40,109 bases of DNA from a virus. The translations under genes were made by a program, and so were the position numbers. The DNA is taken from the UHGV virus genome UHGV-0115014; one strand, 5' to 3'. Shown one piece after another: positions 5,748 to 33,095 of the stretch. The notes below the pieces were generated by a model, which saw nothing but the letters and a program-made list of their open reading frames with translations, was not told the origin of the DNA and did not search any database. The first letter of the stretch is position 1. Every line of letters starts with the position of its first letter.

Positions 5748-5824
5748 TTACCGTTGAGGTAATAATTATGCGTATTTGGTTTGATGTCAATAGATATGAG
5801 TTAAAAAAATTACCCGTTAGGTAA
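5748..5824 (-). promoter_or_regulatory. Leftward early promoter region flanked by two TTACC-N5-GGTAA operator-like palindromes
   Basis: TTACCGTTGAGGTAA (about 5748-5762) and TTACCCGTTAGGTAA (about 5810-5824) bracket a minus-strand TTGACA (plus 5785-5790) and AT-rich -10-like sequence; immediately upstream of leftward operon. Confidence 0.45.
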
Positions 5825-5834
5825 TCGAACAGGC

Positions 5835-5860
5835 AATAAAAAAGCCGCCAGAAGGCGGCT
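5835..5860 (-). terminator. Intrinsic terminator after repressor gene
   Basis: Minus-strand hairpin AGCCGCC-TTCT-GGCGGCT followed by T-run. Confidence 0.6.
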
Positions 5861-5881
5861 TACTTACTGAAAAGTATGATT

Positions 5882-6466
5882 TTATTGTTTGTTTTTTTCG
5901 TTCTGGTTGATGACAAATTCAATGTAACTTTCGATCTTTGCTTTCTCGGTTTCTGGTAACAAAGCGTAGCGCGAGCGGTCATAGTTGATAGTCGCAGGGT
6001 CGTGCGGGTGAATCAGTAATTCATAGCCGTGACGCCCGAATGCGGATGCAACATTCTCCAGGGTGGAAATGGAAACGCTGACCTCATTGTTTAACAGGCG
6101 GCTGATTGTCACCTGGGCGACGCCGGATGCGCGGTGAAGTTTTCCCTGCGTTGAAAGGTCGCGGCTTTCGCTCATCCAGCGTTCCAGGTTGTGAGCCGCC
6201 AGTTGACCAATGTCGCTTGGTCCGACAGGCTGAAAACCTTCCTGAGAAAGCGAGCGATCGATATCAAGCCAGTTACGGGGTTTATTGGCGGCAGCTTCAA
6301 TTTTTCGCGCAACCTGGTCGCCGATAACCTTCTTGCCAAGAGCCCAGCGGTTTACCAGATTTGCCTGAGTTCCAAGTTTTTCAGCCATCCGCGTCTGAAC
6401 ACCATTGAATTCACGGTCGATCAAGTCGTTGAGATTTTGCCTGCGGACGTCCTGGATACTTTTCAT
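5882..6466 (-). CDS. Phage repressor-like protein with two HTH (XRE/Cro-C1-type) domains, no S24 peptidase domain
   Basis: 194 aa; two helix-turn-helix blocks (GVQTRMAEKLGTQANLVNRWALGKK and ASGVAQVTISRLLNNEVSVSISTLENVASAF); divergent from Cro-like gene; followed by intrinsic terminator. Confidence 0.7.
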   Translation of the reverse strand: MKSIQDVRRQNLNDLIDREFNGVQTRMAEKLGTQANLVNRWALGKKVIGDQVARKIEAAANKPRNWLDIDRSLSQEGFQPVGPSDIGQLAAHNLERWMSESRDLSTQGKLHRASGVAQVTISRLLNNEVSVSISTLENVASAFGRHGYELLIHPHDPATINYDRSRYALLPETEKAKIESYIEFVINQNEKNKQ

Positions 6467-6620
6467 TTTCTGGAAAATCGCCTCATATCTGAATCAGAAG
6501 ATGATTCAATTTAAAGCAATATTACCCAACAGGTAAATGCACCTCATGGGTAACTATCCTTGATTTTTGTTACCTTATAGGTGAATATTTATTATCTGAA
6601 ATAAATATCAGGCAATAGCT
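6467..6620. promoter_or_regulatory. Divergent repressor / cro control region with operator-like palindromes
   Basis: TTACCCAACAGGTAA (about 6522-6536) and TTACCTTATAGGTGA (about 6570-6584) between divergent HTH genes; TTGATT -35-like element near 6560. Confidence 0.5.
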
Positions 6621-6851
6621 ATGAGCGATAACGGACATTTCGATTTCAAAAAGCACTGGCTTGCACTTACTCCGGATGAGCGTGAAGCCTTCGCACAGGA
6701 AGCCGGAACGACGAGTCACTATATCCAGACTCACTTAACAGGTAAGCGCAAAATGCCAGGTAAGGTATTGATGGATGGGCTTTTTAAAGCCTGTAAATCA
6801 AGACAATGGCTGCGCTCAAAAGCAGAACTGGCATACTTCTTCTACTCATGA
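6621..6851 (+). CDS. Cro-like / YdaS-family HTH regulator
   Basis: 76 aa, divergently transcribed from repressor gene across palindrome-bearing control region; FAQEAGTTSHYIQTHLTGKRKMP resembles YdaS/Cro-type HTH. Confidence 0.6.
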   Translation: MSDNGHFDFKKHWLALTPDEREAFAQEAGTTSHYIQTHLTGKRKMPGKVLMDGLFKACKSRQWLRSKAELAYFFYS

Positions 6852-6872
6852 TATCCAGCCACAACCCTCTGT

Positions 6873-6896
6873 AGACCGCCATCCGGCGGTCTTTTC
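6873..6896 (+). terminator. Intrinsic terminator after cro-like gene
   Basis: AGACCGCC-ATCC-GGCGGTCT hairpin followed by TTTTC. Confidence 0.55.
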
Positions 6897-6906
6897 ATAT
6901 CTATTC

Positions 6907-6921
6907 GTACCTCAAAGGTAA
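6907..6921. promoter_or_regulatory. Operator-like palindrome GTACC-N5-GGTAA upstream of zinc-finger gene
   Basis: GTACCTCAAAGGTAA directly after cro terminator, 80 bp before ATG 7002. Confidence 0.35.
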
Positions 6922-7001
6922 TAAAAAACCAAATATGGTTGATCTTTTTTTTGTGTCAGCACAAAATAACCGTAATCCCAATACTAATAACAGGGCTTAC
7001 C

Positions 7002-7202
7002 ATGGAAATCATTACACGTATTGATGCCGCAAAGCGCGGACTTAAACGCTACTACACCGGAAAACCATGTAAGCACGGACATGACAGTGAACGCTGGGTT
7101 TACAACGGACACTGTGTTGAGTGCACCATGGAATCAAACCGTCGCATCAGGGCAGAGATTAAGCAGATCATGATTAATTCCTCCCCACAACACTCAAACT
7201 GA
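7002..7202 (+). CDS. Small zinc-finger protein (Cys/His cluster), early regulator position
   Basis: Table ORF 6939..7202 with start at MEIITR; cluster KPCKHGHDSERWVYNGHCVEC; lies where cII-type regulators sit, between cro-like and replication genes. Confidence 0.45.
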   Translation: MEIITRIDAAKRGLKRYYTGKPCKHGHDSERWVYNGHCVECTMESNRRIRAEIKQIMINSSPQHSN

Positions 7203-7217
7203 TAGCGGAGATTAATC

Positions 7218-8033
7218 ATGAGCAGACATGCAACAGATTGGGCCTGGGAGACAGATCCAGGTAGCTCATCATTAAAGCTCATACTGCTCTCGATGGCTGA
7301 CAGAGCCGATGAATATAACCTCTGCTACCCCAGCATAGAACGCCTCGTTAAAGACACTTGCCTGAATAAAAAAACCGTGCAGGCCGGGCTTATATCGCTC
7401 ATGAAAATGGGGCTTATTTCAGATACCGGAGAGAGAAAGGGAGCGACAAAAAGAGTGCGGGTTTTCTCTCTTAATATAACCAAAAACGGGAACATTAAAG
7501 GCAACCGGGAGGGGGGCAATGAACCCGAAAACGGGAATATACCCGAAAACGGGAATATACCCAAAAACGGGATGTTGAATGATCCCAAAAACGGGATGTT
7601 GAATGATCCCAAAAACGGGATCCAGAACCAGTCATATAACCAGTCATTTAACCAAGAGAGGGAGAGCAGGACAAAAAGCGGGGATTCTGTGCCTCATGAC
7701 CCCGGAGCAAACAACGCCGTGATGAATAACTTTGTTCCTCCTGGTGGGCCAGGGCAATTAGGCAAATTTGTCATGCATGAACAATGGCAGCCATCAGATG
7801 ACTTTCTTCGGAAAAGCTCATTGCAGGGGATCTACCTGGACAGTCTGCCAACGGCACAGGAACTTGCAGAGTTCAGAATTTACTGGATGGCTGAGGGTAA
7901 GGCATACCATCAGGCACAGTGGGAGCAGAAGCTGGCAAGGCGGCTGCAGATTAGCAGACAGAAGCAATCAACATTACCTGATAACAACGTTCCGCACTGG
8001 AACAGCCCTGAAGCATGGGAGGATTTCTTGTGA
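7218..8033 (+). CDS. Replication initiator, lambda O-like (iterons inside gene)
   Basis: 271 aa; N-terminal HTH-like region; central peptide NGNIPENGNIPKNGMLNDPKNGMLNDPKNG is the translation of a DNA iteron array, as in lambda O/ori. Confidence 0.7.
   Translation: MSRHATDWAWETDPGSSSLKLILLSMADRADEYNLCYPSIERLVKDTCLNKKTVQAGLISLMKMGLISDTGERKGATKRVRVFSLNITKNGNIKGNREGGNEPENGNIPENGNIPKNGMLNDPKNGMLNDPKNGIQNQSYNQSFNQERESRTKSGDSVPHDPGANNAVMNNFVPPGGPGQLGKFVMHEQWQPSDDFLRKSSLQGIYLDSLPTAQELAEFRIYWMAEGKAYHQAQWEQKLARRLQISRQKQSTLPDNNVPHWNSPEAWEDFL
7523..7623 (+). repeat. Iteron array (putative replication origin) inside O-like gene
   Basis: Five tandem repeats with palindromic core CCCRAAAACGGG: two 18-bp copies ACCCGAAAACGGGAATAT, two 24-25-bp copies CCCAAAAACGGGATGTTGAATGAT and a partial fifth; followed by AT-richer sequence with AACCAGTCAT x2. 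Confidence 0.65.
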
Positions 8034-8815
8034 ACAACGTTTTTACCGCGATACAAAACCGTGACGGAGAAGCCCTTTCTCGCATGTCAGGTTATGAGCA
8101 TCAGTACGTCAACAATGACAATGTGGTGAACATGTCAGCAGAGAGGCTTGTTGATGCCCTTTTTAAACAGCTGAAACAACTGTTTCCGGCGGCAGTGGTA
8201 ACCAACCTGAAGACGCCAGAGCAGGAAGTTGCTGCAAAACAGCAGTGGATTGCTGCGTTTGCCGAAGGGGGGATCCGAACCCGTGAACAGGTTTCTGCTG
8301 GTATGCGCCACGCCCGCGCCAGTGAATCTCCGTTCTGGCCGTCTCCAGGGCAATTTATCAAGTGGTGCAAAGACAGCAAGATGGTTCTTGGCGTCACCAT
8401 TGACGATGTGATGGCGGAGTTTCACCGGTACAGCAAGGAAAAAAGTTTATATCCTGGTGGTCCCGAAAGATTCCCGTGGCGACATCCGGTTATGTACTGG
8501 GTCGTATGTGATACCCGCCGTGCAATGTATCAGCGCCAGCTTAGCGAGATTGAGGTTGAGAAACACGCACGCAGGCTGCTCGATGATTGGGCGAAAAAGG
8601 TGGCTTCCGGACAGCAGATACCCGATCCGGTGATCAGCATACAGGCAAAGCCAGAGCCCATGAGTACGCCTCCGGACACAGGGAGAGACGTTTACCATCC
8701 ACCAGGGCGAAGTTTCGGGTGCATGCCTAACGCCGCCACCCTTGGGGGAATAACACCGGCGCAGTGGCTGATGGAGGAATACAGGCGGGGAAAGGCGGCA
8801 GGATTTATCAAGTAA
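8015..8815 (+). CDS. Replication protein P-like helicase loader
   Basis: Block GIRTREQVSAGMRHARASESPFWPSPGQFIKWCKD matches lambda P block NGITTMEQVNAGMRVARRQNRPFLPSPGQFVAWCRE (recalled from memory); start ATG 8015 or GTG near 8030. Confidence 0.75.
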   Translation: MGGFLVNNVFTAIQNRDGEALSRMSGYEHQYVNNDNVVNMSAERLVDALFKQLKQLFPAAVVTNLKTPEQEVAAKQQWIAAFAEGGIRTREQVSAGMRHARASESPFWPSPGQFIKWCKDSKMVLGVTIDDVMAEFHRYSKEKSLYPGGPERFPWRHPVMYWVVCDTRRAMYQRQLSEIEVEKHARRLLDDWAKKVASGQQIPDPVISIQAKPEPMSTPPDTGRDVYHPPGRSFGCMPNAATLGGITPAQWLMEEYRRGKAAGFIK

Positions 8816-8843
8816 TACCAGCGCGATAGCGCATTTTTTTACG

Positions 8844-8929
8844 CCTCGACAATTACCTGTTAGGTAATAAAATATTCTAAAATCTATTGATTTCGTGTCT
8901 TATGTGGTTTTTAATTACCTCAGAGGTAA
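8844..8929. promoter_or_regulatory. Pair of TTACC-N5-GGTAA palindromes upstream of DUF1064-like gene
   Basis: TTACCTGTTAGGTAA (about 8844-8858) and TTACCTCAGAGGTAA (about 8915-8929, abutting ATG 8933) with TTGATT and TATGTGGTT between them. Confidence 0.45.
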
Positions 8930-8932
8930 ATC

Positions 8933-9277
8933 ATGAGAAAACAGATACAGGCTCTTGGTCGACTCAAAACAGGTCAGATGAACAAAACAGAATCTGCGTA
9001 TTGCCAGCACCTTGAGCTGCGTAAACGTGCAGGAGAAATCGTCTGGTATCGATTTGAGGGTATCAAGCTGCGGTTAGCTGACAACACGTTCTATACGCCC
9101 GATTTTGCTGTGATGCTCGCCACCGGCGAGATGGAACTGCACGAAGTGAAAGGTTTCTGGACCGACGACGCCAGGGTGAAAACCAAAGTCGCCGCAGATC
9201 AGTATCCGTTCCGAATCATCGGGGTAACGGTTAAACCAAAGAAAGCAGGTGGTGGCTGGATCATCGAAGAGTTCTGA
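8933..9277 (+). CDS. DUF1064-like phage protein (putative nuclease), nin-region-like
   Basis: 114-aa ORF; an operator-like palindrome abuts its start codon; family assignment from recalled similarity only. Confidence 0.5.
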   Translation: MRKQIQALGRLKTGQMNKTESAYCQHLELRKRAGEIVWYRFEGIKLRLADNTFYTPDFAVMLATGEMELHEVKGFWTDDARVKTKVAADQYPFRIIGVTVKPKKAGGGWIIEEF

Positions 9278-9338
9278 ATCGACGATCTTTTTAGTTATCA
9301 ATGTTATCAATAAGTTATGTGGATAAGCGAGGGTAAAG

Positions 9339-9590
9339 ATGGAAAGTAATATCAAATGGTTAGTTGCCGCCGGGCATGAGATGGCTTCGGAACTGAAAGC
9401 AGAATGTGGTGCCGTTGATATGCGCAGTGTGGCAAAGCTGATCAGCGATTTGGCAACGCAACTGGTGCGTGCTAATGCGCTGGCCGAAGACCAGCAGAAA
9501 GCGATTGAGTCAATTAAGCAGGCTGATGCAGCTGTTAAGTTGGCACACGAGAAGTTTTCGGCGCTGGCGTGTGCCTTACGAATTTGGTGA
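9339..9590 (+). CDS. Hypothetical protein
   Basis: 83-aa ORF with GAGGG SD-like sequence upstream. Confidence 0.45.
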   Translation: MESNIKWLVAAGHEMASELKAECGAVDMRSVAKLISDLATQLVRANALAEDQQKAIESIKQADAAVKLAHEKFSALACALRIW

Positions 9591-9627
9591 GTATATTGCG
9601 TTACTTATCCGCCAGGATGATGCTCGC

Positions 9628-9768
9628 GTGCACGGGCGTATAAAATCGATCAGCAGAAAACGTTGCGGTAAGTGCGGCGAGATAGTTCCTGTGAATTCAT
9701 GCCCGTGTAATGGTGACTCGCAATGCTGGGTGACCAAAGGCTGGCATGAAACGAAATTAATAGTGTGA
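9628..9768 (+). CDS. Small zinc-ribbon protein (start uncertain)
   Basis: C-terminal part of table ORF 9469..9768 lying beyond the stop of the overlapping upstream gene; Cys cluster CGKCGEIVPVNSCPCNGDSQC; possible GTG start near 9628 or frameshift/coupling from upstream gene. Confidence 0.25.
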   Translation: MHGRIKSISRKRCGKCGEIVPVNSCPCNGDSQCWVTKGWHETKLIV

Positions 9769-9776
9769 CATGTCAC
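9765..9776. repeat. 12-bp perfect palindrome GTGACATGTCAC (copy 1)
   Basis: Exact palindrome spanning stop of zinc-ribbon ORF and start of ORF 9765..9998. Confidence 0.6.
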
Positions 9777-9998
9777 GAAGGTGTTATGCCAAAAATACGC
9801 TACGACCTTGAAGATATGAGAGATAACTCAGCAAATTTTCCGAAAGAGGTTAAATTTCTCATGCATAAGTATGGTTGCGCCAGGAGGGATATAGTTATCG
9901 ACAGTCAGCACCCTTGCGGCGAGGATGTAATTTTCATTCGCGGTAAATGGGAAGGGTATCTTGACGAGAGTTTTTACGATGAATTTGATGGACTTTGA
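9765..9998 (+). CDS. Hypothetical protein
   Basis: 77 aa; GTG start lies inside the GTGACATGTCAC palindrome that also contains the upstream stop. Confidence 0.4.
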   Translation: MTCHEGVMPKIRYDLEDMRDNSANFPKEVKFLMHKYGCARRDIVIDSQHPCGEDVIFIRGKWEGYLDESFYDEFDGL

Positions 9999-10040
9999 AT
10001 ACTGCCGCCAACTATGGCGGCTTTATTTTGCATGGTACTA

Positions 10041-10055
10041 TTACCACAACGGTAA
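10041..10055. promoter_or_regulatory. TTACC-N5-GGTAA palindrome within direct repeat upstream of terminase small subunit
   Basis: TTACCACAACGGTAA inside repeat GGTA(N)CTATTACCAC x2, 18 bp before ATG 10073. Confidence 0.4.
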
Positions 10056-10072
10056 CTATTACCACGGTGGTT

Positions 10073-10669
10073 ATGATGCCTGCTGAACCTAAAACCTATA
10101 AACGCAAATCAACGCAATTTAAGCCGCTCACAGCAATGCAGGAGGCTTATTGCCAGTCATACATCAAAACGCCTGAAAACCAGACTCAGGCAGCGATTAA
10201 CGCAGGATTCTCCCCAAATACAGCGGCAGTTAAAGCCAGTGTCATGATGCGCGATGAACGCATTCAAAAACGGATTGCCGAGTTGATGGAGGAGCGCAAC
10301 AAACGAATGCGCGTCAGTGCTGATTACGTTCTCATGCGCTTGGTGGAGATCGACCAGATGGACGTGATCGATATCCTCAACGACGATGGGAGCCTTAAAC
10401 CAATCCGTGAGTGGCCGAAAATCTGGCGCACTACGCTTAGTGGCTTTGATCTGTCATCGACCATCATGAACATGAACGAGGATTCGATAGAGACAATCCT
10501 CAAAAAAATTAAATGGCCTGACAAGGTGAAGAACCTAGAACTGATTGGTAAGCATGTTGATGTCAACGCGTTCAAAGAACGTCTGGATGTTAATGTGAAT
10601 GTGACAATTGCTGATCGCATAGCAGCAGCCAGGAAGCGACTCAAAGAACGTCAGGATGGTAATCAGTGA
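10073..10669 (+). CDS. Terminase small subunit
   Basis: Table ORF 9995..10669 with start at MMPAEPK; block AMQEAYCQSYIKTPENQTQAAINAGFSPNTAAVKAS typical of phage terminase small subunits; stop overlaps start of large subunit. Confidence 0.75.
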   Translation: MMPAEPKTYKRKSTQFKPLTAMQEAYCQSYIKTPENQTQAAINAGFSPNTAAVKASVMMRDERIQKRIAELMEERNKRMRVSADYVLMRLVEIDQMDVIDILNDDGSLKPIREWPKIWRTTLSGFDLSSTIMNMNEDSIETILKKIKWPDKVKNLELIGKHVDVNAFKERLDVNVNVTIADRIAAARKRLKERQDGNQ

Positions 10670-12141: not shown

Positions 12142-12191
12142 TCCGCTGGTGGGGATAATGTCGTTGATATCCTCTGATGAGGATAAAACAA

Positions 12192-12218
12192 AGCCAGCTC
12201 ATCGGCTGGCTGTTTGTG
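12192..12218. terminator. Putative bidirectional terminator between convergent terminase and Gp49-like genes
   Basis: AGCCAGC-TCATCG-GCTGGCT hairpin flanked by A-rich and T-rich runs. Confidence 0.4.
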
Positions 12219-12227
12219 ACATGTCAC
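12216..12227. repeat. 12-bp perfect palindrome GTGACATGTCAC (copy 2)
   Basis: Exact palindrome between convergent terminase-large and Gp49-like genes, adjacent to hairpin terminator. Confidence 0.6.
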
Positions 12228-12231
12228 GGTG

Positions 12232-12603: not shown

Positions 12604-12801
12604 AATCTCACCTTAAAAAAATGCCCGGCGAACCGGGCGAACTGGAAGCAATGAGTTATGCCTTCCGTGGCTGTACGGGTTTACAGCATGAAGTCATCGC
12701 AATGGCGTCCTGCTGTAAAAAGGGCGGTGATAGTCCTTCAAGGGAAACCATCACCGCCAAGCACCTGGAACTTCTGGTATCACGGTCCTTAGGCGTGATT
12801 C

Positions 12802-12878
12802 TGGCGTGGCATGCAGGATTCGAACCTGCGACCAACCGCTTAGAAGGCGGTTGCTCTGTCCAACTGAGCTAATGCCAC
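12802..12878 (-). tRNA. tRNA-Arg (anticodon UCU), phage-encoded
   Basis: 77-nt cloverleaf read on minus strand: acceptor stem GTGGCAT/ATGCCAC, D-arm GCTC...GAGC, anticodon stem ACCGC/GCGGT with loop CTTCTAA (anticodon TCT), T-arm GCAGG-TTCGAAT-CCTGC, discriminator G and encoded CCA. Confidence 0.85.
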
Positions 12879-13200: not shown

Positions 13201-13215
13201 TTACCTGAAAGGTAA
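13201..13215. promoter_or_regulatory. TTACC-N5-GGTAA palindrome upstream of head gene block
   Basis: TTACCTGAAAGGTAA followed by AT-rich promoter-like sequence and ATGTGGTT (13260-13267), about 95 bp before ATG 13306. Confidence 0.4.
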
Positions 13216-13305: not shown

Positions 13306-13512
13306 ATGTGCATGGGTAGCTCACCATCAGTGCCTGCAACACCAGAAGTTCAGGCAGCACCACAGGAGCAGGATGCCGCCGTTGTTGATGCCCGCGACGA
13401 AGAAACACGTCGCCGTCGCGCTGCTGCTGGTCGTAGTTCTACGCTGCTTACCGGTTCTCAGGGCGACACATCAACTGCTAATACCAGCGGTAAAACGCTG
13501 CTTGGTCAGTAA
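13306..13512 (+). CDS. Small virion-associated protein (possibly T7 gp6.7-like)
   Basis: 68 aa, MC N-terminus, Ala/Gln/Arg-rich, GGAG SD, immediately upstream of portal gene. Confidence 0.4.
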   Translation: MCMGSSPSVPATPEVQAAPQEQDAAVVDARDEETRRRRAAAGRSSTLLTGSQGDTSTANTSGKTLLGQ

Positions 13513-13526
13513 CCGGAGTCATTGAA

Positions 13527-15499: not shown

Positions 15500-15501
15500 T
15501 C

Positions 15502-19012: not shown

Positions 19013-21477
19013 TGGCTATCAGTTGGATCCAGCCCAGCTTTGCCGGTGGTGAGATTGGACCGTCTTTGTACGGTCGTATCGACATGGCGAAGTACCAGGT
19101 GGCATTGCGCAAGTGCGATAACTTTATCGTGCGGCAGTATGGCGGCGTTGAGAATCGACCTGGTACGCGTTTTGTCGGTGCCGCCAAATACCCAAATCGG
19201 AAATGCCGCCTGATCCCGTTCCAGTTCTCGACGGTTCAGACTTATGCTCTGGAGTTCGGACACCAGTACATGCGCGTTATCAAAGATGGTGCGTTGGTGC
19301 TGAACAGCAGCAATGTTATTTATGAAATTGCCACGCCATATACTGAAGCCGATCTGTTCCGAATTAAATTCACGCAAAGCGCAGACGTGCTTACGCTGGT
19401 TCATCCGGCATACCCGCCGAAAGAGTTGCGCCGCTATGCGCATGACAACTGGCAACTGGTTGATGTGGTAACGAAGAACGGGCCATTTGAAGATATCAAT
19501 ATTGACGAGTCAGTGACGGTTTATGCCAGCGCCAGCACCGGGACAATTACGTTAACGGCAAGCGCCTCAATTTTTGGCGCGGAGCAGGTAGGCAAATTGT
19601 TCTATCTGGAACAGCCTGCAGTGGATTCTGTGCCGGTATGGGAAACCAGTAAGAGTACGTCGATTGGCGATATTCGCCGTGCAGACAGTAACTACTATCG
19701 CGCCGTTACAGCAGGCAAAACAGGCACTTTGCGCCCTTCGCATACAGAAGGCACATCATGGGATGGCTGGGGCGGATCCGGTGATGATGATACCGGCATT
19801 GAGTGGGAGTATCTGCACAGTGGTTTTGGCATTGCCCGTATCTCTGCTGCAAATGGAACTACTGCAACTGCCGAGGTGATTTCCTATATCCCTTCGCAGG
19901 TAGTTGGCGAGGATAATGCCAGCTATAAATGGGCTAAATATGCCTGGAACAGTATTAACGGTTATCCTGGCACTGTTGTTTATTATCAACAACGCCTTTA
20001 CTTCGCCGCATCGACTGCGTTCCCTCAGACTATCTGGGCCAGCCGTACCGGGGATTATAAGGATTTTGGCAAAAGCAATCCTACGCAGGATGACGACAGA
20101 ATTATCTACACCTATGCCGGGCGTCAGGTTAATGAGATCCGTCACCTGATTGATGTTGGTTCGCTGGTGGCGCTGACTTCCGGAGGTGAGTACGTCATCA
20201 CTGGCGACCAGAACAAAGTGCTTACCCCATCATCATTTGCATTCAGCTCTCAGGGATCAAATGGCTCGAGCAATGTCCCACCAATTGCCGTGGCGAATAT
20301 TGCTCTGTTCGTCCAGGAGAAAGGCAGTGTTGTCCGTGATCTGGCCTACTCATTCGATGTTGACGGCTATCAGGGGAACGACCTGACCATCCTTGCCAAT
20401 CATCTTTTTCAGAAGCACAGCATTGTTGACTGGTGCTTCTCGATTGTCCCTTACTCCAGCGCCTTCTGCATTCGTGATGACGGTAAATTACTGGTGATGA
20501 CCTATTTGCGTGATCAGCAGGTTTTTGCATGGGCACCACAATCCAGTACCGGAAAATATGAAAGCACATGCAGTATCAGCGAAGGCAATGAAGATGCGGT
20601 GTATTTCGTCGTTAACCGAACCGTTAACGGGCAAACAGTGAGATACATAGAGCGACTGTCCAGCCGTTTATTTACCAGCGATGAAGATGCTTTCTTTGTT
20701 GATTCTGGCCTTAGCTATGATGGAAGAAATACGTCTGACAGAACGATGACCATCACTGGTGGTTCTGGTGAATGGGATTACCGTGCGGAATATACAATCA
20801 GTGTTTCTGGTGGTGCGTACTTCACCAGTAGTGATGTCGGCGCGCAACTACAGTTCCCTTATACCGGAACTGATCCTGATACTGAAGTGTCAAAAGAATT
20901 ACGTTGCGACATTATTTCTGTAACCAGCAATACCGCTGTAGTGGTTCGTGCTAACAGGAACGTCCCGCCATCCCTCAGGAATGTGGCCACCACGAACTGG
21001 CAGATGGCGCGCCGGACATTTGGAGGCCTGTCTCATCTTGAAGGCCAGACCGTAAACATTCTCTCTGATGCGAACGTGGAACCACAGAAAGTGGTTTCCG
21101 GAGGTGCCGTCACGCTGGAATCACCTGGGGCTGTAGTGCACATCGGCCTGCCAATAACTGCTGAATTCGAAACACTGGATATCAACATTAACGGACAGGA
21201 AACGCTGCTGGACAAAAAACAGGTGATCCCGTCCGTTACTCTGGTTGTGAATGCCAGTCGCGGCATCTGGGCGACTACGCCCGGCGGTAAATGGTACGAA
21301 TATCCACAGCGTGAATTCGAGTTCTACGATGATCCTGTTGATGATGCTACCGGAAAAGTAGAAGTGAAACTGGACAGTAACTGGGGCAAAAACGGGCGTG
21401 TAAAAATCCGTCAGCTTGACCCGTTGCCGCTGTCTGTTCTTGCCGTTATTCCTCGCCTTACTGTTGGGGGATTCTGA
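19012..21477 (+). CDS. Tail tubular protein B-like / nozzle protein (gp12-like position)
   Basis: 821 aa directly after gp11-like gene; size and position as in podovirus tail modules. Confidence 0.5.
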   Translation: MAISWIQPSFAGGEIGPSLYGRIDMAKYQVALRKCDNFIVRQYGGVENRPGTRFVGAAKYPNRKCRLIPFQFSTVQTYALEFGHQYMRVIKDGALVLNSSNVIYEIATPYTEADLFRIKFTQSADVLTLVHPAYPPKELRRYAHDNWQLVDVVTKNGPFEDINIDESVTVYASASTGTITLTASASIFGAEQVGKLFYLEQPAVDSVPVWETSKSTSIGDIRRADSNYYRAVTAGKTGTLRPSHTEGTSWDGWGGSGDDDTGIEWEYLHSGFGIARISAANGTTATAEVISYIPSQVVGEDNASYKWAKYAWNSINGYPGTVVYYQQRLYFAASTAFPQTIWASRTGDYKDFGKSNPTQDDDRIIYTYAGRQVNEIRHLIDVGSLVALTSGGEYVITGDQNKVLTPSSFAFSSQGSNGSSNVPPIAVANIALFVQEKGSVVRDLAYSFDVDGYQGNDLTILANHLFQKHSIVDWCFSIVPYSSAFCIRDDGKLLVMTYLRDQQVFAWAPQSSTGKYESTCSISEGNEDAVYFVVNRTVNGQTVRYIERLSSRLFTSDEDAFFVDSGLSYDGRNTSDRTMTITGGSGEWDYRAEYTISVSGGAYFTSSDVGAQLQFPYTGTDPDTEVSKELRCDIISVTSNTAVVVRANRNVPPSLRNVATTNWQMARRTFGGLSHLEGQTVNILSDANVEPQKVVSGGAVTLESPGAVVHIGLPITAEFETLDININGQETLLDKKQVIPSVTLVVNASRGIWATTPGGKWYEYPQREFEFYDDPVDDATGKVEVKLDSNWGKNGRVKIRQLDPLPLSVLAVIPRLTVGGF

Positions 21478-26798: not shown

Positions 26799-26803
26799 AT
26801 TAA

Positions 26804-29278
26804 ATGAGACAGGAATGTATACAAGCGGTCCAGCAGGCGGCGCAGCGCACGTTAACGGCGCGAGAAATACAGAACATTGAAGACCGCATTTATCGAAATA
26901 TGCGCTCCATTGCTCGTGATGACCCGATGTCGTGGCGACAACTTTCCGAATCAGAACGGTTGTATCGTGCAGCACAATTGGCATCTGAAGAATTACAGCG
27001 AGAAGCGGCATTAAAGAAACGTCGTGTGGCCCTCACTATAGCCGCACGTCAGAGATTGGATAAATTTATCAATAGCTATCAAGGGGCTGATGGGAAACTT
27101 GGCGCTCTTAACCGTACTATTGCTTTTAATGCAGACGGTAAATCGAATTTCCTCTCTGTTGAATCCAGAACAAAAGCCACCCGTGATTATGCATTGAGTC
27201 AATTGCAGGAGGCATTCGAAGCAGTTGATCCTCGCTTTTTTGGTCTGTTTGAAGATGAAGCGGGCGTACGTGACCTGGTATATGAAATGCGGGGGCAAAA
27301 TACTGGCAATGCTAAAGCAAGAAAAGGTGCTAAGGCGTGGAGAGAAGTTACAGAGCTGCTGCGCCGCCGGTTTAATGATGCTGGTGGGGACATTGGCTAT
27401 CTCGAAAACTGGGGGATCCCTCAACATCATTCTATGGAAAAGGTTGGGGCGGTATCAAAGGATAAGTGGGTTAGCGATGTTATAGGTAAGCTGGATCGCA
27501 AATATTATACCCGAGCCGATGGACAACTGATGAACGATGCCGAGTTGTCTGAATTTCTTGGAGAGGCTTATAACACGATCGCTACTGGTGGGCTGAATAA
27601 GCTTACTGATACCGGAATGCGAATTTCCGGCGCACGTGCTAACCGTGGTAATGCATCACGACAGATACATTTCAAAGATGCAGATTCCTATCTGCAATAT
27701 CAGCAACTTTATGGCGATCGCTCTCTATGGGAAATCATGGTCGGTCACCTTGAAGGTATCAGTAAAGATATTGCACTGGTGGAAACATATGGCCCAAACC
27801 CCGATCATGTTTTCCGCTCTCTTCTTGATCAGGTGAAGGCAGAAACGGCAACAGCTAACCCGAGTAAAACCGGTAGCGTCGAGCGTCTGGCGAACAAAAC
27901 AGAGAACCTGTACAACTTTATTTCCGGAAAAACACAGCCTGTAGCGAATCCGCACATCGCGCGATGGTCTGACAATATCCGCAACTGGCTGGTTGCCAGC
28001 AGACTCGGATCCGCGTTGCTGTCATCGTTCTCTGATCTTGGAACCATGTATCTGTCTGCGAAGGTTACCAACCTTCCAATGAACCAGTTATTCCGCAACC
28101 AGCTTGAAGCTATGGACCCAACGAACCGTACAGAACTTGCGCGGGCGCGCCGCGCTGGTCTGGCGATGGAATCTCTACTTGGCAGCGTTAACCGCTGGGC
28201 GATGGATAATATGGGGCCGTCTGTGTCTCGTTGGGCTGCAACGGCGGTAATGCGTGCCAGTGGGCTTACAGCATGGTCAGATGCGCACAAGCGCGCCTAT
28301 GGCGTAACCATGATGGGAAGCCTGGGAGAAGTAGTGTCACGGACACCAGACCTTCGTCGCCTCGATGACTCTGATTTTCGTATCCTGAAAAGCAAAGGGA
28401 TTACTGACACAGACTGGAGCGTATGGAAGTTGGCGCAACAGGAGGACTGGGGGAACGGTAATAATACGATGCTGACACCGGAAAGCATTATGCGTATCCC
28501 TGATTCAGCAGTTAAACATCTTGGTGAGCCTGAACGCGTGAAATTTGAGGCAATGCGTAAACTGCTCGGTGCCGTAACTGAAGAAGTTGATATGGCTGTT
28601 ATTACACCGGGCGCACGTGAACAGATGTTCGTAGGGTCTGGTCTTCAGCGTGGAACATGGAAAGGTGAATTAACGAGAAGTGTTTTCCTGTTTAAATCGT
28701 TCCCTATCTCTGTAGTTATGCGTCACTGGCATAGAGCTATGGGGATGCCGTCTGCTGGTGGGCGTGCAGCATATATAGCAACGTTTTTAGCAAGCACAAC
28801 CATGCTTGGTGCTCTTTCCATGCAGATTACTGATCTTATTAATGGGAGAAATCCAAAAGAAATGACCGGTGACAACATGGTTAAATTCTGGATGAATGCA
28901 TTTTTAAAAGGTGGTGGTGCAGGGTTGTATGGTGATTTTCTTTTCTCTGACCACACCAGGTACGGAAGCGGCGCGTTGGCGTCGATGCTTGGCCCGGTAG
29001 CTGGTCTGGTTGATGACGTAGTGAAGATAGCTCAGGGCATACCGCTAAATGCTGTGGAAGGGAAGAGTGAGCAGACTGGTGGTGATCTGGTTAAGCTGGG
29101 GAAGGGGCTGATGCCAGGTGCGAATCTCTGGTACTTGAAGGCGGCTCTCGATCATATGATCTTTAACCAGATGCAGGAGTATTTTTCACCAGGCTATTTG
29201 CGTAAAATGGAGCAACGTTCGAAGAAAGAGTTTAACCAGACATACTGGTGGCGACCTCAGGATGTCACTCCGCAATAA
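26804..29278 (+). CDS. Internal virion / ejection protein (gp16-like position)
   Basis: 824 aa; last of three consecutive large proteins in the core/ejection block. Confidence 0.5.
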   Translation: MRQECIQAVQQAAQRTLTAREIQNIEDRIYRNMRSIARDDPMSWRQLSESERLYRAAQLASEELQREAALKKRRVALTIAARQRLDKFINSYQGADGKLGALNRTIAFNADGKSNFLSVESRTKATRDYALSQLQEAFEAVDPRFFGLFEDEAGVRDLVYEMRGQNTGNAKARKGAKAWREVTELLRRRFNDAGGDIGYLENWGIPQHHSMEKVGAVSKDKWVSDVIGKLDRKYYTRADGQLMNDAELSEFLGEAYNTIATGGLNKLTDTGMRISGARANRGNASRQIHFKDADSYLQYQQLYGDRSLWEIMVGHLEGISKDIALVETYGPNPDHVFRSLLDQVKAETATANPSKTGSVERLANKTENLYNFISGKTQPVANPHIARWSDNIRNWLVASRLGSALLSSFSDLGTMYLSAKVTNLPMNQLFRNQLEAMDPTNRTELARARRAGLAMESLLGSVNRWAMDNMGPSVSRWAATAVMRASGLTAWSDAHKRAYGVTMMGSLGEVVSRTPDLRRLDDSDFRILKSKGITDTDWSVWKLAQQEDWGNGNNTMLTPESIMRIPDSAVKHLGEPERVKFEAMRKLLGAVTEEVDMAVITPGAREQMFVGSGLQRGTWKGELTRSVFLFKSFPISVVMRHWHRAMGMPSAGGRAAYIATFLASTTMLGALSMQITDLINGRNPKEMTGDNMVKFWMNAFLKGGGAGLYGDFLFSDHTRYGSGALASMLGPVAGLVDDVVKIAQGIPLNAVEGKSEQTGGDLVKLGKGLMPGANLWYLKAALDHMIFNQMQEYFSPGYLRKMEQRSKKEFNQTYWWRPQDVTPQ

Positions 29279-29307
29279 GGAAGTGTTGTGTTTTTAATTA
29301 TTTTGAG

Positions 29308-29463
29308 TGTGATAATTTCTGGTGGATTGTTATTTATTGACCGCTACAAATATTTTCTTAACCCTCAGACTCAAGCTATTTGCTGGTTCATCTTTGTTGT
29401 GCAGGGAGTAGTTCTTGTTGCAAGCCTTATTGAGGGGAGGCCTCTGATTTTTAATGGGTAAAT
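29308..29463 (+). CDS. Small hydrophobic protein (51 aa)
   Basis: Unlisted small ORF with GTG start; one TM-like segment AICWFIFVVQGVVLVASLI. Confidence 0.2.
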
Positions 29464-29473
29464 AGGTGACTAC

Positions 29474-29770
29474 ATGCAAGCTATAGGATTCATTGTTTAT
29501 ATCGTCGTTGGTCTTTTTCAGTTGGCAGCAATTATGGCTGGGCTTGAATCATGGTGGGGGTTGCACTGGGTAATTGCAGCTCCCGTTGCTTTTGTCGTGA
29601 GTTATATTCCGTTTGTTGGAGCGATTGTTGGTATGATTGGCGCTGTGGATGTATGGCGGTGGGAGTGGTGGCAGGCTGGCCTTCTCTTCTTTGGTGGGAT
29701 CATCTTTGCTATTGTCTGCGGTGGAATGTCATCATTTTTCGAACGGCTATCATTCAGAAAAGGAACGTGA
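29474..29770 (+). CDS. Small integral membrane protein (about 3 TM segments)
   Basis: 98 aa, strongly hydrophobic; stop codon lies inside a GTGACATGTCAC palindrome. Confidence 0.5.
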   Translation: MQAIGFIVYIVVGLFQLAAIMAGLESWWGLHWVIAAPVAFVVSYIPFVGAIVGMIGAVDVWRWEWWQAGLLFFGGIIFAIVCGGMSSFFERLSFRKGT

Positions 29771-29778
29771 CATGTCAC
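29767..29778. repeat. 12-bp perfect palindrome GTGACATGTCAC (copy 3)
   Basis: Exact palindrome containing stop of membrane protein gene 29474..29770 and ATG of plus-strand ORF 29772..29915. Confidence 0.6.
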
Positions 29779-29801
29779 AGGCCGCTTTCGCGGCCTTGTT
29801 T

Positions 29802-29963
29802 TTAACGAATGCCACCGCCACCCGGGCGGGAATCCGCAGAACGCCCACCGCAGCGGGAGCCGTCAGCGGCAGTATCGCTGTCGTGCTGACAACGACCGGC
29901 AAAGGCCTGAGTTGAAGCTACCAGAGACAACAAAACGAACAGTGCAGCAAATGCTTTTTTCAT
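29802..29963 (-). CDS. Small secreted peptide (signal peptide plus 31-aa Cys-containing mature part)
   Basis: MKKAFAALFVLLSLVASTQAFA signal peptide with AxA cleavage motif; TTGACG-N16-TATAGA promoter-like sequence upstream on minus strand; antisense-overlaps alternative plus-strand ORF 29772..29915, so strand assignment is uncertain. Confidence 0.35.
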   Translation of the reverse strand: MKKAFAALFVLLSLVASTQAFAGRCQHDSDTAADGSRCGGRSADSRPGGGGIR

Positions 29964-30032
29964 TGTGAAATTTCCATCTATAATCCACCTCAATGTGGCG
30001 TCAATGAGTGTAGCACTGACTTTTGTTTCGTC

Positions 30033-30057
30033 CACAAAAAAGCCCGCGGCGCGGGCT
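30033..30057 (-). terminator. Intrinsic terminator after YafO-like gene
   Basis: Minus-strand GCCCGCG-CCG-CGGGC hairpin followed by TTTTTTGTGG; overlaps stop codon. Confidence 0.6.
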
Positions 30058-30602
30058 TATTCCTTCCATTTATCAGAAAAAAGATCTTCTTCTAAAGGCA
30101 TTGGTTCTGTTTTTGTTTTCTCAAAGAATTGATAACTGATAGTGATTGCTGCCTCTTTAAACTCTTCTTGCTCAGTTATGTTGTGGGCATCTGCGTCAAC
30201 AAAAAACATAACCAGCGCATCACGATTGTGATTTACCGAATAAACTAAAAAGCAATTACTTGTTGGTATGCATTTTACTTGCACAGACGCTATTTTTTTC
30301 CATGCATCCCAAGATGATTTTTTACCAGTGTGTTTTTTATCACTATCTTCTGGAATATAGTCTTGGTTATCGACATGAGTATGCCTGACATTTAGTTTAA
30401 GCATTTCTGTCGGACGAGCAAATGCAGCATCTTTACCAAGAGATGGATGGTATCCCGTTTTCCAATACTGGGTAAAGGCATCAGATACTTTCTTCAGCTC
30501 AAGATCAGATGCACAAAGGGCCGAGAAATTTTGCGTATGCAATACTCGACCCTTATATCTGACAATTTGATTTTTATCATTCTGCGACGCAGACGAACTC
30601 AT
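30057..30602 (-). CDS. YafO-family toxin-like protein
   Basis: Table ORF 30057..30629 with start at MSSSAS; region DAFTQYWKTGYHPSLGKDAAFARPTEMLKLNVRHTHV and FLVYSVNHNRDALVMFFVD aligns with E. coli YafO blocks ADFISYKRDGVLPDIFGRDALY...LIKFERVAHIHL and HLVYCQGAFDEQAWLLIAIL (recalled from memory); intrinsic terminator at 3' end. Confidence 0.45.
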   Translation of the reverse strand: MSSSASQNDKNQIVRYKGRVLHTQNFSALCASDLELKKVSDAFTQYWKTGYHPSLGKDAAFARPTEMLKLNVRHTHVDNQDYIPEDSDKKHTGKKSSWDAWKKIASVQVKCIPTSNCFLVYSVNHNRDALVMFFVDADAHNITEQEEFKEAAITISYQFFEKTKTEPMPLEEDLFSDKWKE

Positions 30603-30756
30603 AATTTTCCTTATTGTTACGAGAATCAAAGAAAGCGCGGGATACGCGACTTGCGTGATCTTTTGTCATAGTAACTTTTACGCACTCTACGCTTCCATTG
30701 AAAGAACGTCTTGCGGCAGCTTGCGCTCTACGCATCTGCAATTTTTCGTTTCGCAT
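30577..30756 (-). CDS. Small basic ORF upstream of YafO-like gene (candidate antitoxin or leader peptide)
   Basis: Unlisted 59-aa ORF MRNEKLQMRRAQAAARRSF...; overlaps start of YafO-like gene in another frame; speculative. Confidence 0.2.
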   Translation of the reverse strand: MRNEKLQMRRAQAAARRSFNGSVECVKVTMTKDHASRVSRAFFDSRNNKENYEFVCVAE

Positions 30757-30816
30757 GACATTACCTCATATCTCATAAGTTCATTACACGGATTAATAAA
30801 AATGAAACCAATCCGT

Positions 30817-30831
30817 TTACCCTTGAGGTAA
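30817..30831. promoter_or_regulatory. TTACC-N5-GGTAA palindrome upstream of YafO-like cassette
   Basis: TTACCCTTGAGGTAA about 60 bp upstream (minus strand) of small ORF start 30756. Confidence 0.4.
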
Positions 30832-30903
30832 TAGTACGCTATTCACCCACAGTCTGCAATCTGTACAGAATTATTTAAAGGCACATCCCTGTGCCGCCGC
30901 CCG

Positions 30904-31599
30904 TCAGAAGAACCCTGCCTTGTCGTTGATGTACTCCGCGTGCGTCTGGATATCACGCAGGCATTTGCTCACACCGACGATGTAACAGAACATGGTGGTC
31001 AGCTCCGCCGCCGCGCCCGATACGTCGTGCCCGTCGTCCTGTAACTGGTTCAGCAGATTCATCAGCAGTGAGTTCTCCGTCAGGCCGAGAACACCAGACG
31101 GAGAATGAATCAGGCTGCGGTAGCCGGGCTTCAGCGGGGCACTGTAGGTTTTGTTCTCTATCTTCATTGCCTGCATTACTGCTGACGCCGTGGCGTTGGC
31201 TACCTGGTCGGCAACCATCTTTATGCGTTCTTCCTGCGGTAGCGAGTTTTTAATGTAACTTCCGGTGCGGCGGATCTGAGGAAGAACCTCACCTGTAACC
31301 CATTTACGAAAGCGGTAGGGGATAGTGCCTGGTGTCACCGCATCGCGGCAGCGGAGGATCAGTGTGTAGAGGCCTGACTCGGAGATGATGATCGATTCTT
31401 GCTCACCGCCAGGGGTGTCGGTTGAAGCGACGCCCTTCTCATCATCATCAAGTTTTCGAACAGCATCTCGATGGTTTGCTATGCCTATAGCCCGACAAAC
31501 ATCTGAAGCGATAAACCATGGCTCACCATTAATGACGATTACTCGTATATCGGCTTGGGATTCGAAAGAAAAAATGGACGTGCTTTTTGTAGCTGTCAT
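30904..31599 (-). CDS. Bro-N domain protein (antirepressor-like)
   Basis: 231 aa; N-terminal block VIVINGEPWFIASDVCRAIGIANHRDAVRKL is a Bro-N/antirepressor-type signature; C-terminal 70 aa are paralogous to ORF 32747..33004. Confidence 0.7.
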   Translation of the reverse strand: MTATKSTSIFSFESQADIRVIVINGEPWFIASDVCRAIGIANHRDAVRKLDDDEKGVASTDTPGGEQESIIISESGLYTLILRCRDAVTPGTIPYRFRKWVTGEVLPQIRRTGSYIKNSLPQEERIKMVADQVANATASAVMQAMKIENKTYSAPLKPGYRSLIHSPSGVLGLTENSLLMNLLNQLQDDGHDVSGAAAELTTMFCYIVGVSKCLRDIQTHAEYINDKAGFF

Positions 31600-31868
31600 A
31601 GTGGTTACCTTTTAGTCAGGTTAATCACCACTACCGACGCCAATCGGTTGGTGGTGAACTGTGCAGGGTTGGCGTAACCGGCTAAAAGGACCCGGCGCAC
31701 CTTTCGGTGCCCCCACACAGCCCACCATAATACGAATGTGGCCGTGCTATACGCATAAAAAAACCGCTTGCGCGGTGAATGCGCCTTTTAGTAATCCGGG
31801 ACGCCAATCCCGGCACTGGATTTTGCCAGTGCCCGATTACTATGGCACAAGAGGAGTGCAATGTAAAT

Positions 31869-31976
31869 TTACCGCAAAGGTAATGATAAACGCGGAGAAA
31901 TATTAAAATCAACCGCATTTGGTTGATTGCGTTTAACGCTTGATCACCTGAAAGCAAGATATTACCTTTAAGGTAA
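31869..31976. promoter_or_regulatory. Pair of TTACC-N5-GGTAA palindromes upstream of zinc-ribbon membrane protein gene
   Basis: TTACCGCAAAGGTAA (about 31869-31883) and TTACCTTTAAGGTAA (about 31962-31976), the latter 20 bp before ATG 31997. Confidence 0.45.
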
Positions 31977-31996
31977 TGTTATTGTGAGGAAAAGCA

Positions 31997-32725
31997 ATGG
32001 AAGTTTTCTGGATAGTTGTTGGTGTTGTTACGGTGATTATTTACGTTATCAACCAGAACAGGACTAAGGTCTCTGATCGCACAGTCGTTAATCATCGCAA
32101 AACGATAAAGACCGAAGATGGAGAAATAACGATTAATCGTACACAGGTGATAGACCACACCTCCACTCAGTTTCAAAAAACTGGAGGTAATGCGCCTAAT
32201 ATTTCCGCACCTCCTGCTTATGATAGTGCGGTAATCCAGACATATTATAAACAGCAGGAGTTAGCAAAAGAGAGGCAACTGATTCAGCCAAAGCCATTTA
32301 CAGCAGAGCTTCCACCTGGAGTGTCAACGCGTCCGGCATATCATGGAAGATTCCCTGGTGATGACATATCGTCTCAGTCATCTAAAAAAGCACCTCAGGC
32401 AGTATCAGAGCCAGCAAGAATACCTTCTGTATCGCCGCCAAAAGAAGAATCAGCTAACAGAGTTTCAAGTGGTAGCAAGCAGTGCTTGCGATGCAGAATA
32501 AACCTTCCATATGAAAAATTCAGGAAATCGTCAAAAAATCCAGATGGATTGACTAAGTGGTGTGCAAGGTGTCTCGATGGTCCAAAGAATACACGCCATA
32601 TGAAGTGGTGCCCAATTTGTAATGTCCGCAGAAAACGAACCAGCTTTTACCCTAATAATCAAAATGCGGATGGCTTAATGGCATGGTGCAAAACGTGCTG
32701 GGACGAGCACAAAGCGAAACGATAG
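31997..32725 (+). CDS. Membrane-anchored protein with two C-terminal zinc-ribbon repeats
   Basis: N-terminal TM helix VFWIVVGVVTVIIYVI, Pro/Ser-rich linker, then duplicated modules CLRC...DGLTKWCARC and CPIC...DGLMAWCKTC; several in-frame AGA/AGG codons; followed by intrinsic terminator. Confidence 0.55.
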   Translation: MEVFWIVVGVVTVIIYVINQNRTKVSDRTVVNHRKTIKTEDGEITINRTQVIDHTSTQFQKTGGNAPNISAPPAYDSAVIQTYYKQQELAKERQLIQPKPFTAELPPGVSTRPAYHGRFPGDDISSQSSKKAPQAVSEPARIPSVSPPKEESANRVSSGSKQCLRCRINLPYEKFRKSSKNPDGLTKWCARCLDGPKNTRHMKWCPICNVRRKRTSFYPNNQNADGLMAWCKTCWDEHKAKR

Positions 32726-32748
32726 GCCGCTCTAGCGGCCTTTTCTTT
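32724..32748 (+). terminator. Intrinsic terminator after zinc-ribbon membrane protein gene
   Basis: GGCCGC-TCTA-GCGGCC hairpin followed by TTTTCTTT. Confidence 0.6.
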
Positions 32749-33004
32749 ATGTGGTTTGTTTTCGTAATTGTTCGGCACAATAGTCGAGATGTGTTTGCAA
32801 ATCCTGCATAGACATCTGTGAGCTGGTGACGTAGTTAATCAGTGCAGTCAGTTCGGCAAGTGGGCCATCGACATTAAATCCATCCTTATCGAGATCCCGG
32901 AGTAATTTCATCAAGTGCGATCCCTCCACCAGTGACCTGACGCCTCCCGGCGTGTGAATCCTTTCGGTAAATCCGTCTTCCAGTGGATAGTGATACTGCT
33001 GCAT
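32747..33004 (-). CDS. Small protein homologous to the C-terminal domain of the Bro-N protein
   Basis: Table ORF 32747..33022 with ATG start at MQQYHY after GGAGAAG SD; about 40-45 percent identity over 70 aa with the C-terminus of 30904..31599 (LMKLLRDLDKDGFNVDGPLAELTALINYV...DLQTHLDY versus LMNLLNQLQDDGHDVSGAAAELTTMFCYI...DIQTHAEY). Confidence 0.55.
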   Translation of the reverse strand: MQQYHYPLEDGFTERIHTPGGVRSLVEGSHLMKLLRDLDKDGFNVDGPLAELTALINYVTSSQMSMQDLQTHLDYCAEQLRKQTT

Positions 33005-33080
33005 CTTATCTTCTCCATGCAATAACTGTATATTTATACAGTATCAAATAATTTGTTTGCTATCCAGCACGTTTTGCAAA

Positions 33081-33095
33081 TTACCCGAAAGGTAA
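33081..33095. promoter_or_regulatory. TTACC-N5-GGTAA palindrome upstream of tail fiber gene
   Basis: TTACCCGAAAGGTAA about 105 bp before ATG 33200, followed by ATGTGGTT at 33128-33135. Confidence 0.4.

Follow-up and report, generated by a model that had tools for sequence, protein, structure and literature searches.

Why does one short palindrome, TTACC-N5-GGTAA, recur between genes of a phage genome from its early region to its tail genes? The question is raised by UHGV virus genome UHGV-0115014, a stretch of 40,109 nucleotides that was analysed as a whole (the window), and for which an original prediction made from the letters alone had proposed a distributed operator system. It represents a phiV10/epsilon15-type (Uetakevirus) prophage that is inserted beside guaA of Escherichia coli and shows ~97% identity to Uetakevirus phages such as phiv142-3, PAS61 and phiV10. 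Judging from sequence comparison, it is highly probable that the palindrome is the operator of Rep (5882..6466), a tetrameric, non-autocleaved repressor of the SPC32H/epsilon15 type, that these operators control the lytic promoters, and that induction is based on an antirepressor, Ant.

Distribution and conservation of the palindrome

Scanning the window returned eleven exact copies of TTACC-N5-GGTAA, beginning at 5748, 5810, 6522, 8853, 8915, 10041, 13201, 30817, 31869, 31962 and 33081, where 100 dinucleotide shuffles gave a chance expectation of 0.02 copies (maximum 1), within the proposed limit of fewer than 0.1. When one mismatch was allowed, 16 matches were found against 0.73 expected, the additional ones lying at 6570, 6907, 10059, 33313 and 36431. 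A position weight matrix built from relatives only and applied at a threshold of at least 14 bits recovered precisely the 13 sites of the original prediction, namely the eleven exact copies together with the one-mismatch copies at 6570 and 6907, whereas shuffles yielded 0.05 sites and a 150-kb sample of E. coli K-12 none. The predicted coordinates were right apart from one, a site miscounted as 8844 that begins at 8853. The one-mismatch copies at 33313 and 36431 were rejected as sites: both lie in coding sequence and score below 8 bits, and ~0.7 such matches are expected by chance.

When every 5+5 palindrome with a spacer of 0-12 was counted, this family, with its 11 copies, proved the sole enriched one in the window; the runners-up, TACCT-N3 (5 copies) and ATTAC-N7 (4 copies), were offset readings of the identical sites. 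All 13 sites, and 10059 as well, are intergenic in a window whose non-coding share is just 9.3% by our own gene list. The promoter-proximal placement that had been claimed for them was borne out at the leftward promoter PL, at the region between rep and a cro-like gene (OR), at a post-replication promoter, at terS, at the head genes, at the accessory island and at the tailspike gene. At least 13 sites are spread over approximately nine intergenic loci spanning some 27 kb, with the extended consensus (A/T)TTACC-(A/T-rich N5)-GGTAA(T/A). An equal density of the motif in host DNA had been named as the outcome that would speak against an operator system; exact sites numbered 0 in three 50-kb segments of E. 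coli K-12 and 0 in the 1.9 kb of host flank within the window.

Exact copies were then counted in related phages, giving 11 in epsilon15, 10 in SPC32H, 8 in phiV10, 8 in Enterobacter phage BUCT554, 10 in Klebsiella phage Kp4865-1, 8 in PAS61 (34 of 39 kb examined) and 6-7 each in prophage segments of 17-21 kb from Pseudocitrobacter, Pseudescherichia, Serratia and Raoultella. Each Rep-encoding relative examined, from Salmonella to Serratia, contained 6-11. The RefSeq record of the type phage, Salmonella phage epsilon15 (NC_004775.2; genome of Kropinski et al. 2007), carries seven features labelled 'protein_bind: repressor / lysogeny', all seven of which read ATTACC-N5-GGTAAT. Three belong to the PL region, between gp37 and the gene for the repressor; of the other four, one follows the replication genes and the rest precede terS, gp3 (the first gene of the head block) and the tail fibre gene, respectively. 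Among the 11 exact copies of epsilon15 there are also two between rep and cro and one preceding the lysis genes. Because this record annotates the identical sequence at matching positions, the network is not new: a distributed operator network is already recognised for this phage group, and the window is a rediscovery rather than the novel system that the original prediction implied. The phiV10 and PAS61 records that were examined are without operator annotation. What may be undocumented is the family-wide 62-bp geometry described below, the constancy of the operator among divergent Reps and different host genera, the presence of an operator ahead of a C4/Bro-Ant module, and a conserved one-mismatch site upstream of int.

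The repressor and the promoters at its putative operators

Rep, the prophage master repressor (5882..6466, minus strand, 194 amino acids), is homologous over its full length to the repressor of Salmonella phage SPC32H, for which a crystal structure exists (PDB 5D50_A; phmmer E-value 4e-42 over residues 1-190), and its C-terminal half aligns with the dimerisation and tetramerisation domains of that protein. In Pfam, residues 106-147 passed the threshold for HTH_3, residues 21-61 fell short of it for a Cro/YdaS-like helix-turn-helix, and Rep had no match to the Peptidase S24 autocleavage domain. Kim and Ryu are said to have found in 2013 that the SPC32H Rep is left uncleaved in the SOS response and is inactivated by LexA-controlled Ant, an account that the lack of an S24 domain in the window Rep fits.

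PMC9638917 and PMC9986798, citing Kim 2016, describe the SPC32H Rep as binding palindromic sites as a tetramer. In these papers its domains are ordered as N-terminal DNA-binding, middle helix-turn-helix-like dimerisation and C-terminal tetramerisation/Ant-binding, and two pairs of DNA-proximal domains lie ~100 Å apart. Rep had originally been called a 'two-HTH' protein, which holds for the HTH_3 match and the weak N-terminal one, but the middle helix-turn-helix-like domain serves dimerisation in the SPC32H protein, according to PMC9986798. Rep is also 100% identical to phiV10 p40, the sequence of which equals that of the ZX5 repressor (PMC9782041); overexpression of the ZX5 repressor abolished free phage and reduced endolysin transcripts by 99.99% and holin transcripts by 99.97% (PMC9782041). 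The epsilon15 annotation, the SPC32H homology and the phiV10/ZX5 identity point to Rep as the likely binder of the palindrome, as had been suggested.

Over its full length Rep is 42% identical to the Reps of epsilon15 and SPC32H. Among homologues of 42-76% identity, residues M1-I4, R8, R9, Q24, R26, E29, N36, R40, W41, K46, G49, A53, R54 and E57 are invariant. In a protein that otherwise diverges to 42% identity, a putative recognition helix (N36-L-V-N/S-R40-W41) is retained, with no change at N36, R40 or W41, and such an invariant recognition surface fits the invariant operator half-site. Direct binding of Rep at each site of the window, like the promoter assignments and the clamping or looping considered below, we infer from these data.

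The clearest promoter assignments are at two modules with a shared plan, in which a terminator is followed by an operator, 19-20 bp, a -35 element CTATTGA(C/T/A), a 17-bp spacer, a -10 element and a second operator that starts at the last base of the -10. PL (TTGACA-17-AATTAT, minus strand, 5790->5762) lies between an exact distal operator at 5810..5824, just downstream of the rep terminator (5842-5861), and an exact proximal operator at 5748..5762, which abuts the -10, covers approximately +1 and is 19 bp away from the first leftward gene. The post-replication promoter, with hexamers read from the sequence (TTGATT at 8887-8892, 17 nt, TTTAAT at 8910-8915), lies between an exact distal operator at 8853..8867, positioned after a terminator-like hairpin, and an exact proximal operator at 8915..8929, the first base of which is the last base of the -10; the latter operator includes the ribosome-binding site of a DUF1064 gene (start 8933). 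The two modules are conserved base for base, PL in 7 genomes and the post-replication module in 8, and it is here that the predicted pairs of sites flanking -35/-10 elements were confirmed.

At both promoters the operator centres are 62 bp apart. This spacing corresponds to ~5.9 helical turns, so that the two operators face the same side of the double helix. IMG/VR was searched for operator pairs with a centre distance of 47-77 bp, yielding at least 120 loci. Among the matches listed, adjacent sites were separated by 62 bp in 117 cases and by 63 bp in 19 (together 136), by 76 bp in 9, and by the remaining in-range distances in a few cases each; a distance of 17-18 bp, which lies outside the searched range, appeared 30 times among them. 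Pairs at 62-63 bp occurred in at least 120 viral contigs, mostly of ~40 kb, so that this regulatory layout is common among the genomes of uncultivated viruses.

Between rep and the cro-like gene, three sites (OR-a, OR-b and OR-c) are positionally conserved in 6 phages. OR-a (6522..6536) is exact and invariant in position in these 6; TTTACC-17-TTAAAT, which it appears to overlap, was picked out by eye as a candidate leftward promoter for rep. OR-b (6539..6553), 17 bp from OR-a, is degenerate in the window (GCACC-N5-GGTAA, 2 mismatches), although its position is conserved and holds an exact site in epsilon15, SPC32H and Kp4865-1. OR-c (6570..6584, 1 mismatch) falls within the spacer and -10 of the rightward promoter PR (TTGATT at 6560-6565, a 17-nt spacer and GAATAT at 6583-6588), for which a sigma-70 scan also gives an alternative hexamer pair; all 6 phages carry an unchanged -35 block at PR, TTGATTTTT.

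Further rightward, a single operator with 1 mismatch (6907..6921) stands just past a terminator (6873-6892) and upstream of a gp40-like gene and the replication genes, and phiV10 has the equivalent site at 33112. Before terS, an exact operator (10041..10055) follows a terminator (10004-10021), and its epsilon15 homologue (12-27) is annotated 'repressor'; a second operator with 1 mismatch (10059..10073) lies 18 bp from the first and 2 bp before the terS ATG at 10076. This tandem is kept in epsilon15 (12/30) and phiV10 (87/105), and a -10-like element, TAACTA (TAATTA in epsilon15), is found between its two sites in an arrangement as at PL. The head-gene block is preceded by an exact operator (13201..13215), with the gp3-like gene starting at 13306 and the epsilon15 homologue (2931-2947) again annotated 'repressor'.

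The accessory island contains three exact operators. One (30817..30831) is 60 bp upstream of a leftward gene pair (30057-30756), another (31869..31883) abuts the -10 of a leftward promoter-like sequence, TTGATT-18-TATCAT (31912->31883), and the third (31962..31976) is 93 bp from the second and 20 bp upstream of a rightward gene (31997-32725). A conserved exact operator (33081..33095) occupies the divergent ant/tailspike intergenic region, where the epsilon15 homologue (19895-19911) is likewise annotated 'repressor'. Altogether at least five sites or pairs (5748, 6570, 8915, 31869 and 10041/10059) abut or overlap -10/-35-like elements. In the post-replication promoter and in a candidate tailspike promoter, an identical 11-mer, ATGTGGTTTTT (8902-8912 and 33128-33138), closely precedes the -10 region or half-site; its enrichment was marginal (2 of 100 shuffles equalled it).

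Finally, the right part of a conserved 1-mismatch site, ATTACCTTAAAGGTATA, was found at 1..7, cut by the window edge and 57 bp upstream of int. The complete site is present in E. coli TO6; homologues are located at 26882 in epsilon15, 26960 in SPC32H and 26870 in phiV10, and 1-mismatch sites occupy apparently corresponding positions in BUCT554 (19769) and Kp4865-1 (140). This conservation suggests that Rep may also control int.

Weighing Rep against other explanations

Several observations weigh against operation of these sites by Rep at promoters. Promoter-like matches from a generic sigma-70 scan were no commoner in the window than in shuffles, and so the promoter assignments rest on cross-genome conservation of the hexamers. 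Hexamers are weak or ambiguous at terS, the head gene, 6907, 30817 and 31962, and the assignments at 6907, 13201, 30817 and 31962 are uncertain. A 62-bp loop across DNA-binding pairs that are ~100 Å apart would require the DNA to bend severely, unless two tetramers interact. The motif follows the phage lineage as a whole and not Rep alone. Moreover, the Cro-like protein (54-79% identical across relatives) is more conserved than Rep and could be a second binder of the operators. Covariation between the recognition residues of Rep and the operator gave no signal, both the recognition helix and the operator core being conserved throughout the Pseudocitrobacter, Pseudescherichia, Serratia and Raoultella loci, and because the operator is invariant, this approach is unable to separate Rep from the Cro-like protein.

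The sites might accordingly be chiefly targets of the Cro-like protein acting in lytic growth, or be shared by Rep and Cro as in lambda. This small regulator of 76 amino acids (6621..6851, plus strand), a homologue of epsilon15 gp39, belongs to a PHROG transcriptional-repressor family (PHROG 35, E-value 9e-13); its 79% identity between the window and epsilon15 fits an invariant operator as well as Rep does, and the three-site OR between rep and cro is lambda-like. However, no Pfam DNA-binding domain was detected in the Cro-like protein, the epsilon15 record ascribes the sites to the repressor rather than to this protein, and overexpression of Rep alone silences the lysis genes (PMC9782041). 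We regard a chiefly Cro-directed network as unlikely, and sharing of the OR sites with Cro would be compatible with Rep as the operator-binding protein.

A different role has also to be considered for the single post-terminator sites (6907, 10041/10059, 13201 and 30817), which might be Rep-dependent roadblocks to read-through, in the manner of stoperators, rather than promoter operators. The sites at 5810, 6907, 8853 and 10041 do each lie 10-25 bp past a terminator-like hairpin, and several single sites are without convincing sigma-70 hexamers. On the other hand, a roadblock would add nothing behind a terminator that works efficiently, and palindromic, strictly intergenic sites are unlike L5 stoperators, which are asymmetric, orientation-biased and inside operons. 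The TAACTA/TAATTA element between the terS tandem sites also recalls the arrangement at PL. Such a function is, in our judgement, improbable for these sites.

That the motif is instead bound by a host factor, or is a repeat without regulatory function that serves, for example, packaging, recombination or replication, is barely credible: this would account for a motif that travels with the Uetakevirus-like lineage across host genera, where association with Rep is confounded with phylogeny, but not for its absence from 150 kb of K-12 and the 1.9 kb host flank, its fixed position relative to -35/-10 elements or its presence at the classic positions between repressor and cro genes.

Probable antirepression, related systems and the lytic programme

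If the palindrome is the Rep operator, relief of repression is expected to depend on Ant. A small antirepressor gene, ant (32747..33004, minus strand), encodes a protein of 85 amino acids matching the 'Anti-repressor protein' of SPC32H (phmmer against PDB 5D50_E, E-value 1e-47). Approximately 20 bp upstream of ant lies a LexA (SOS) box, CTGTATATTTATACAG (33026..33041), near the consensus CTGT-N8-ACAG and conserved in 5 phages, including epsilon15, SPC32H, phiV10 and BUCT554. Another LexA-like CTGT-N8-ACAG sequence (33099-33114), beside operator 33081, is unconserved in these four phages and was set aside as probably fortuitous.

A candidate second antirepressor, identified by domain matches, is encoded in the accessory island by a Bro-N protein with a C-terminal Ant domain (30904..31599, minus strand; Pfam Bro-N, E-value 2e-21; PHROG 450 and antirepressor families), residues 150-226 of which, its C-terminal third, match the 5D50_E antirepressor (E-value 2e-13). 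Directly upstream of this gene, and downstream of operator 31869, are a C4 antisense RNA (31647-31732, minus strand; Rfam RF01695, 77.7 bits) and an isrK-like Hfq-binding small RNA (31757-31832, minus strand; Rfam RF01394, 77.9 bits), both above the gathering score. A leftward promoter at 31869 would drive the isrK-like RNA, the C4 RNA and the Bro-N/Ant gene. The arrangement in phiV10 is identical (site at 20497, isrK at 20388-20463, C4 at 20278-20363), whereas the module is not found in epsilon15 or SPC32H. Since the Bro-N protein carries an Ant-like domain, the prophage encodes a pair of Ant-domain proteins that are differently controlled, the small one behind a LexA box and the Bro-N one behind a C4 RNA.

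In the same island, the leftward two-gene unit at 30057-30756 (minus strand) has overlapping stop and start codons and a second product with a sub-threshold YafO-toxin match, and it may be a toxin-antitoxin-like moron. The prophage ends at an attR core, ATTGAGTGGGAATGATT (38207-38223); the sequence beyond it (38224-40109) belongs to the E. coli chromosome and covers yfgI, yfgH and yfgG, a region found in each of the 5,426 complete E. coli genomes searched. In E. coli TO6 the right prophage-host junction is 100% identical to that of the window, and the prophage there directly follows guaA. The minus-strand open reading frames at 38314-38853 and 38869-39387 are host genes and not phage morons. 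A tRNA-Arg(TCT) gene (12802-12878, minus strand) overlaps the open reading frame at 12621-12872 (hypothetical p04 in phiV10), which is doubtful for that reason; the SPC32H record annotates the tRNA.

The closest known system is that of epsilon15 (gp38 sites), with which the window shares the identical consensus, the number of exact copies (11), syntenic positions and pair spacings of 62 bp and 17-18 bp. In contrast, the two Reps diverge (42% identity overall), PL has two operators in the window and three in epsilon15, OR-b is degenerate, no exact site precedes the lysis cassette of the window, and the accessory-island sites 30817, 31869 and 31962 are additional. SPC32H (PDB 5D50, 5D4Z) has the Rep and Ant homologues, the LexA box upstream of ant and the operator motif (10 exact copies), and the window prophage differs from it in additionally carrying a gene in which Bro-N and Ant are fused, with C4 and isrK-like RNAs ahead of it. 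Rep, operator, syntenic positions, and Ant with its LexA box all place the window in the epsilon15/SPC32H Rep-operator-Ant family.

More distant comparisons were also made. The C1 repressor of phage P1 acts at many dispersed operators, which are asymmetric and 17 bp long, and in immI the c4 and ant sequences come, in this order, behind a promoter under C1 control. The window resembles P1 in its dispersed operators, with one primary repressor serving separate operons, and in a C4 RNA and antirepressor gene behind an operator; it differs in that its operator is a 15-17-bp palindrome and its induction would proceed via LexA-controlled Ant. Matches of Rep were limited to HTH_3 (Pfam) and the SPC32H Rep (PDB), and no direct comparison of Rep with C1 was made. 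The stoperators bound by L5 gp71 are asymmetric 13-bp sites, oriented with transcription, which lie inside transcription units and block elongation. Repressor sites in the window likewise extend genome-wide beyond the immunity region, but they are symmetric, and so without orientation information, all intergenic, and overlap promoter cores. Both phages had been invoked originally, and the likeness to P1 survives whereas that to L5 does not: P1 is the more apt comparison because of the C4-antirepressor module behind an operator.

The original prediction had further contrasted the window with the two-operator layout of lambda. The contrast was overstated, in that a lambda-like tripartite OR and a multi-operator PL are retained. 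As in lambda, rep and the cro-like gene point away from each other, and the three operators that separate them overlap PR and a candidate PRM. Unlike lambda, Rep is without an S24 domain, operators are also found on late, tail and accessory units, and pairs at a fixed 62 bp flank promoters.

According to the proposed mechanism, Rep in a lysogen would sit at nearly every lytic unit, on operators lying over or beside the core promoter: PL, PR, the post-replication unit, terS, the head block, the tailspike gene, probably int, and both antirepressor loci. With a terminator before most units, each would be silenced separately, and no single lambda-style early promoter would feed an antitermination cascade. 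At the 62-bp pairs, one operator would be at approximately -60 and the other would abut the -10 and cover +1. The same-face spacing and a tetrameric Rep with two DNA-binding pairs suggest cooperative clamping of the promoter, most likely by one tetramer or by two interacting tetramers. Upon DNA damage, LexA would leave the box at 33026-33041, Ant would be made, and Ant would strip Rep from the DNA and so derepress all of the units together.

Tentatively, and as a combination that we would not yet call probable, three features may hold jointly: a 62-bp Rep 'promoter clamp'; direct repression of the whole lytic programme, structural and tail genes included, with no cascade; and a shared immunity specificity at the DNA level. 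The last is conceivable because the operator and the Rep helix are constant across Reps of 42% identity and at least seven host genera, in which case specificity may have moved to the Rep-Ant interface.

Temperate-phage regulation is understood mostly from lambda, the repressor of which touches two operator regions. In the epsilon15/phiV10/SPC32H group, one repressor would act at most lytic promoters, with induction by antirepression, and the group is common as prophages of E. coli, Salmonella, Klebsiella, Enterobacter, Citrobacter and Serratia. The present analysis provides a ready, predicted regulon map for phiV10-type prophages, in which ~15 operators are placed together with their promoters, a c4-type RNA and the two antirepressor loci. 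The 62-bp geometry may in addition offer a direct, testable handle on repression by tetrameric Rep, a mechanism described in 2023 as not extensively characterised.

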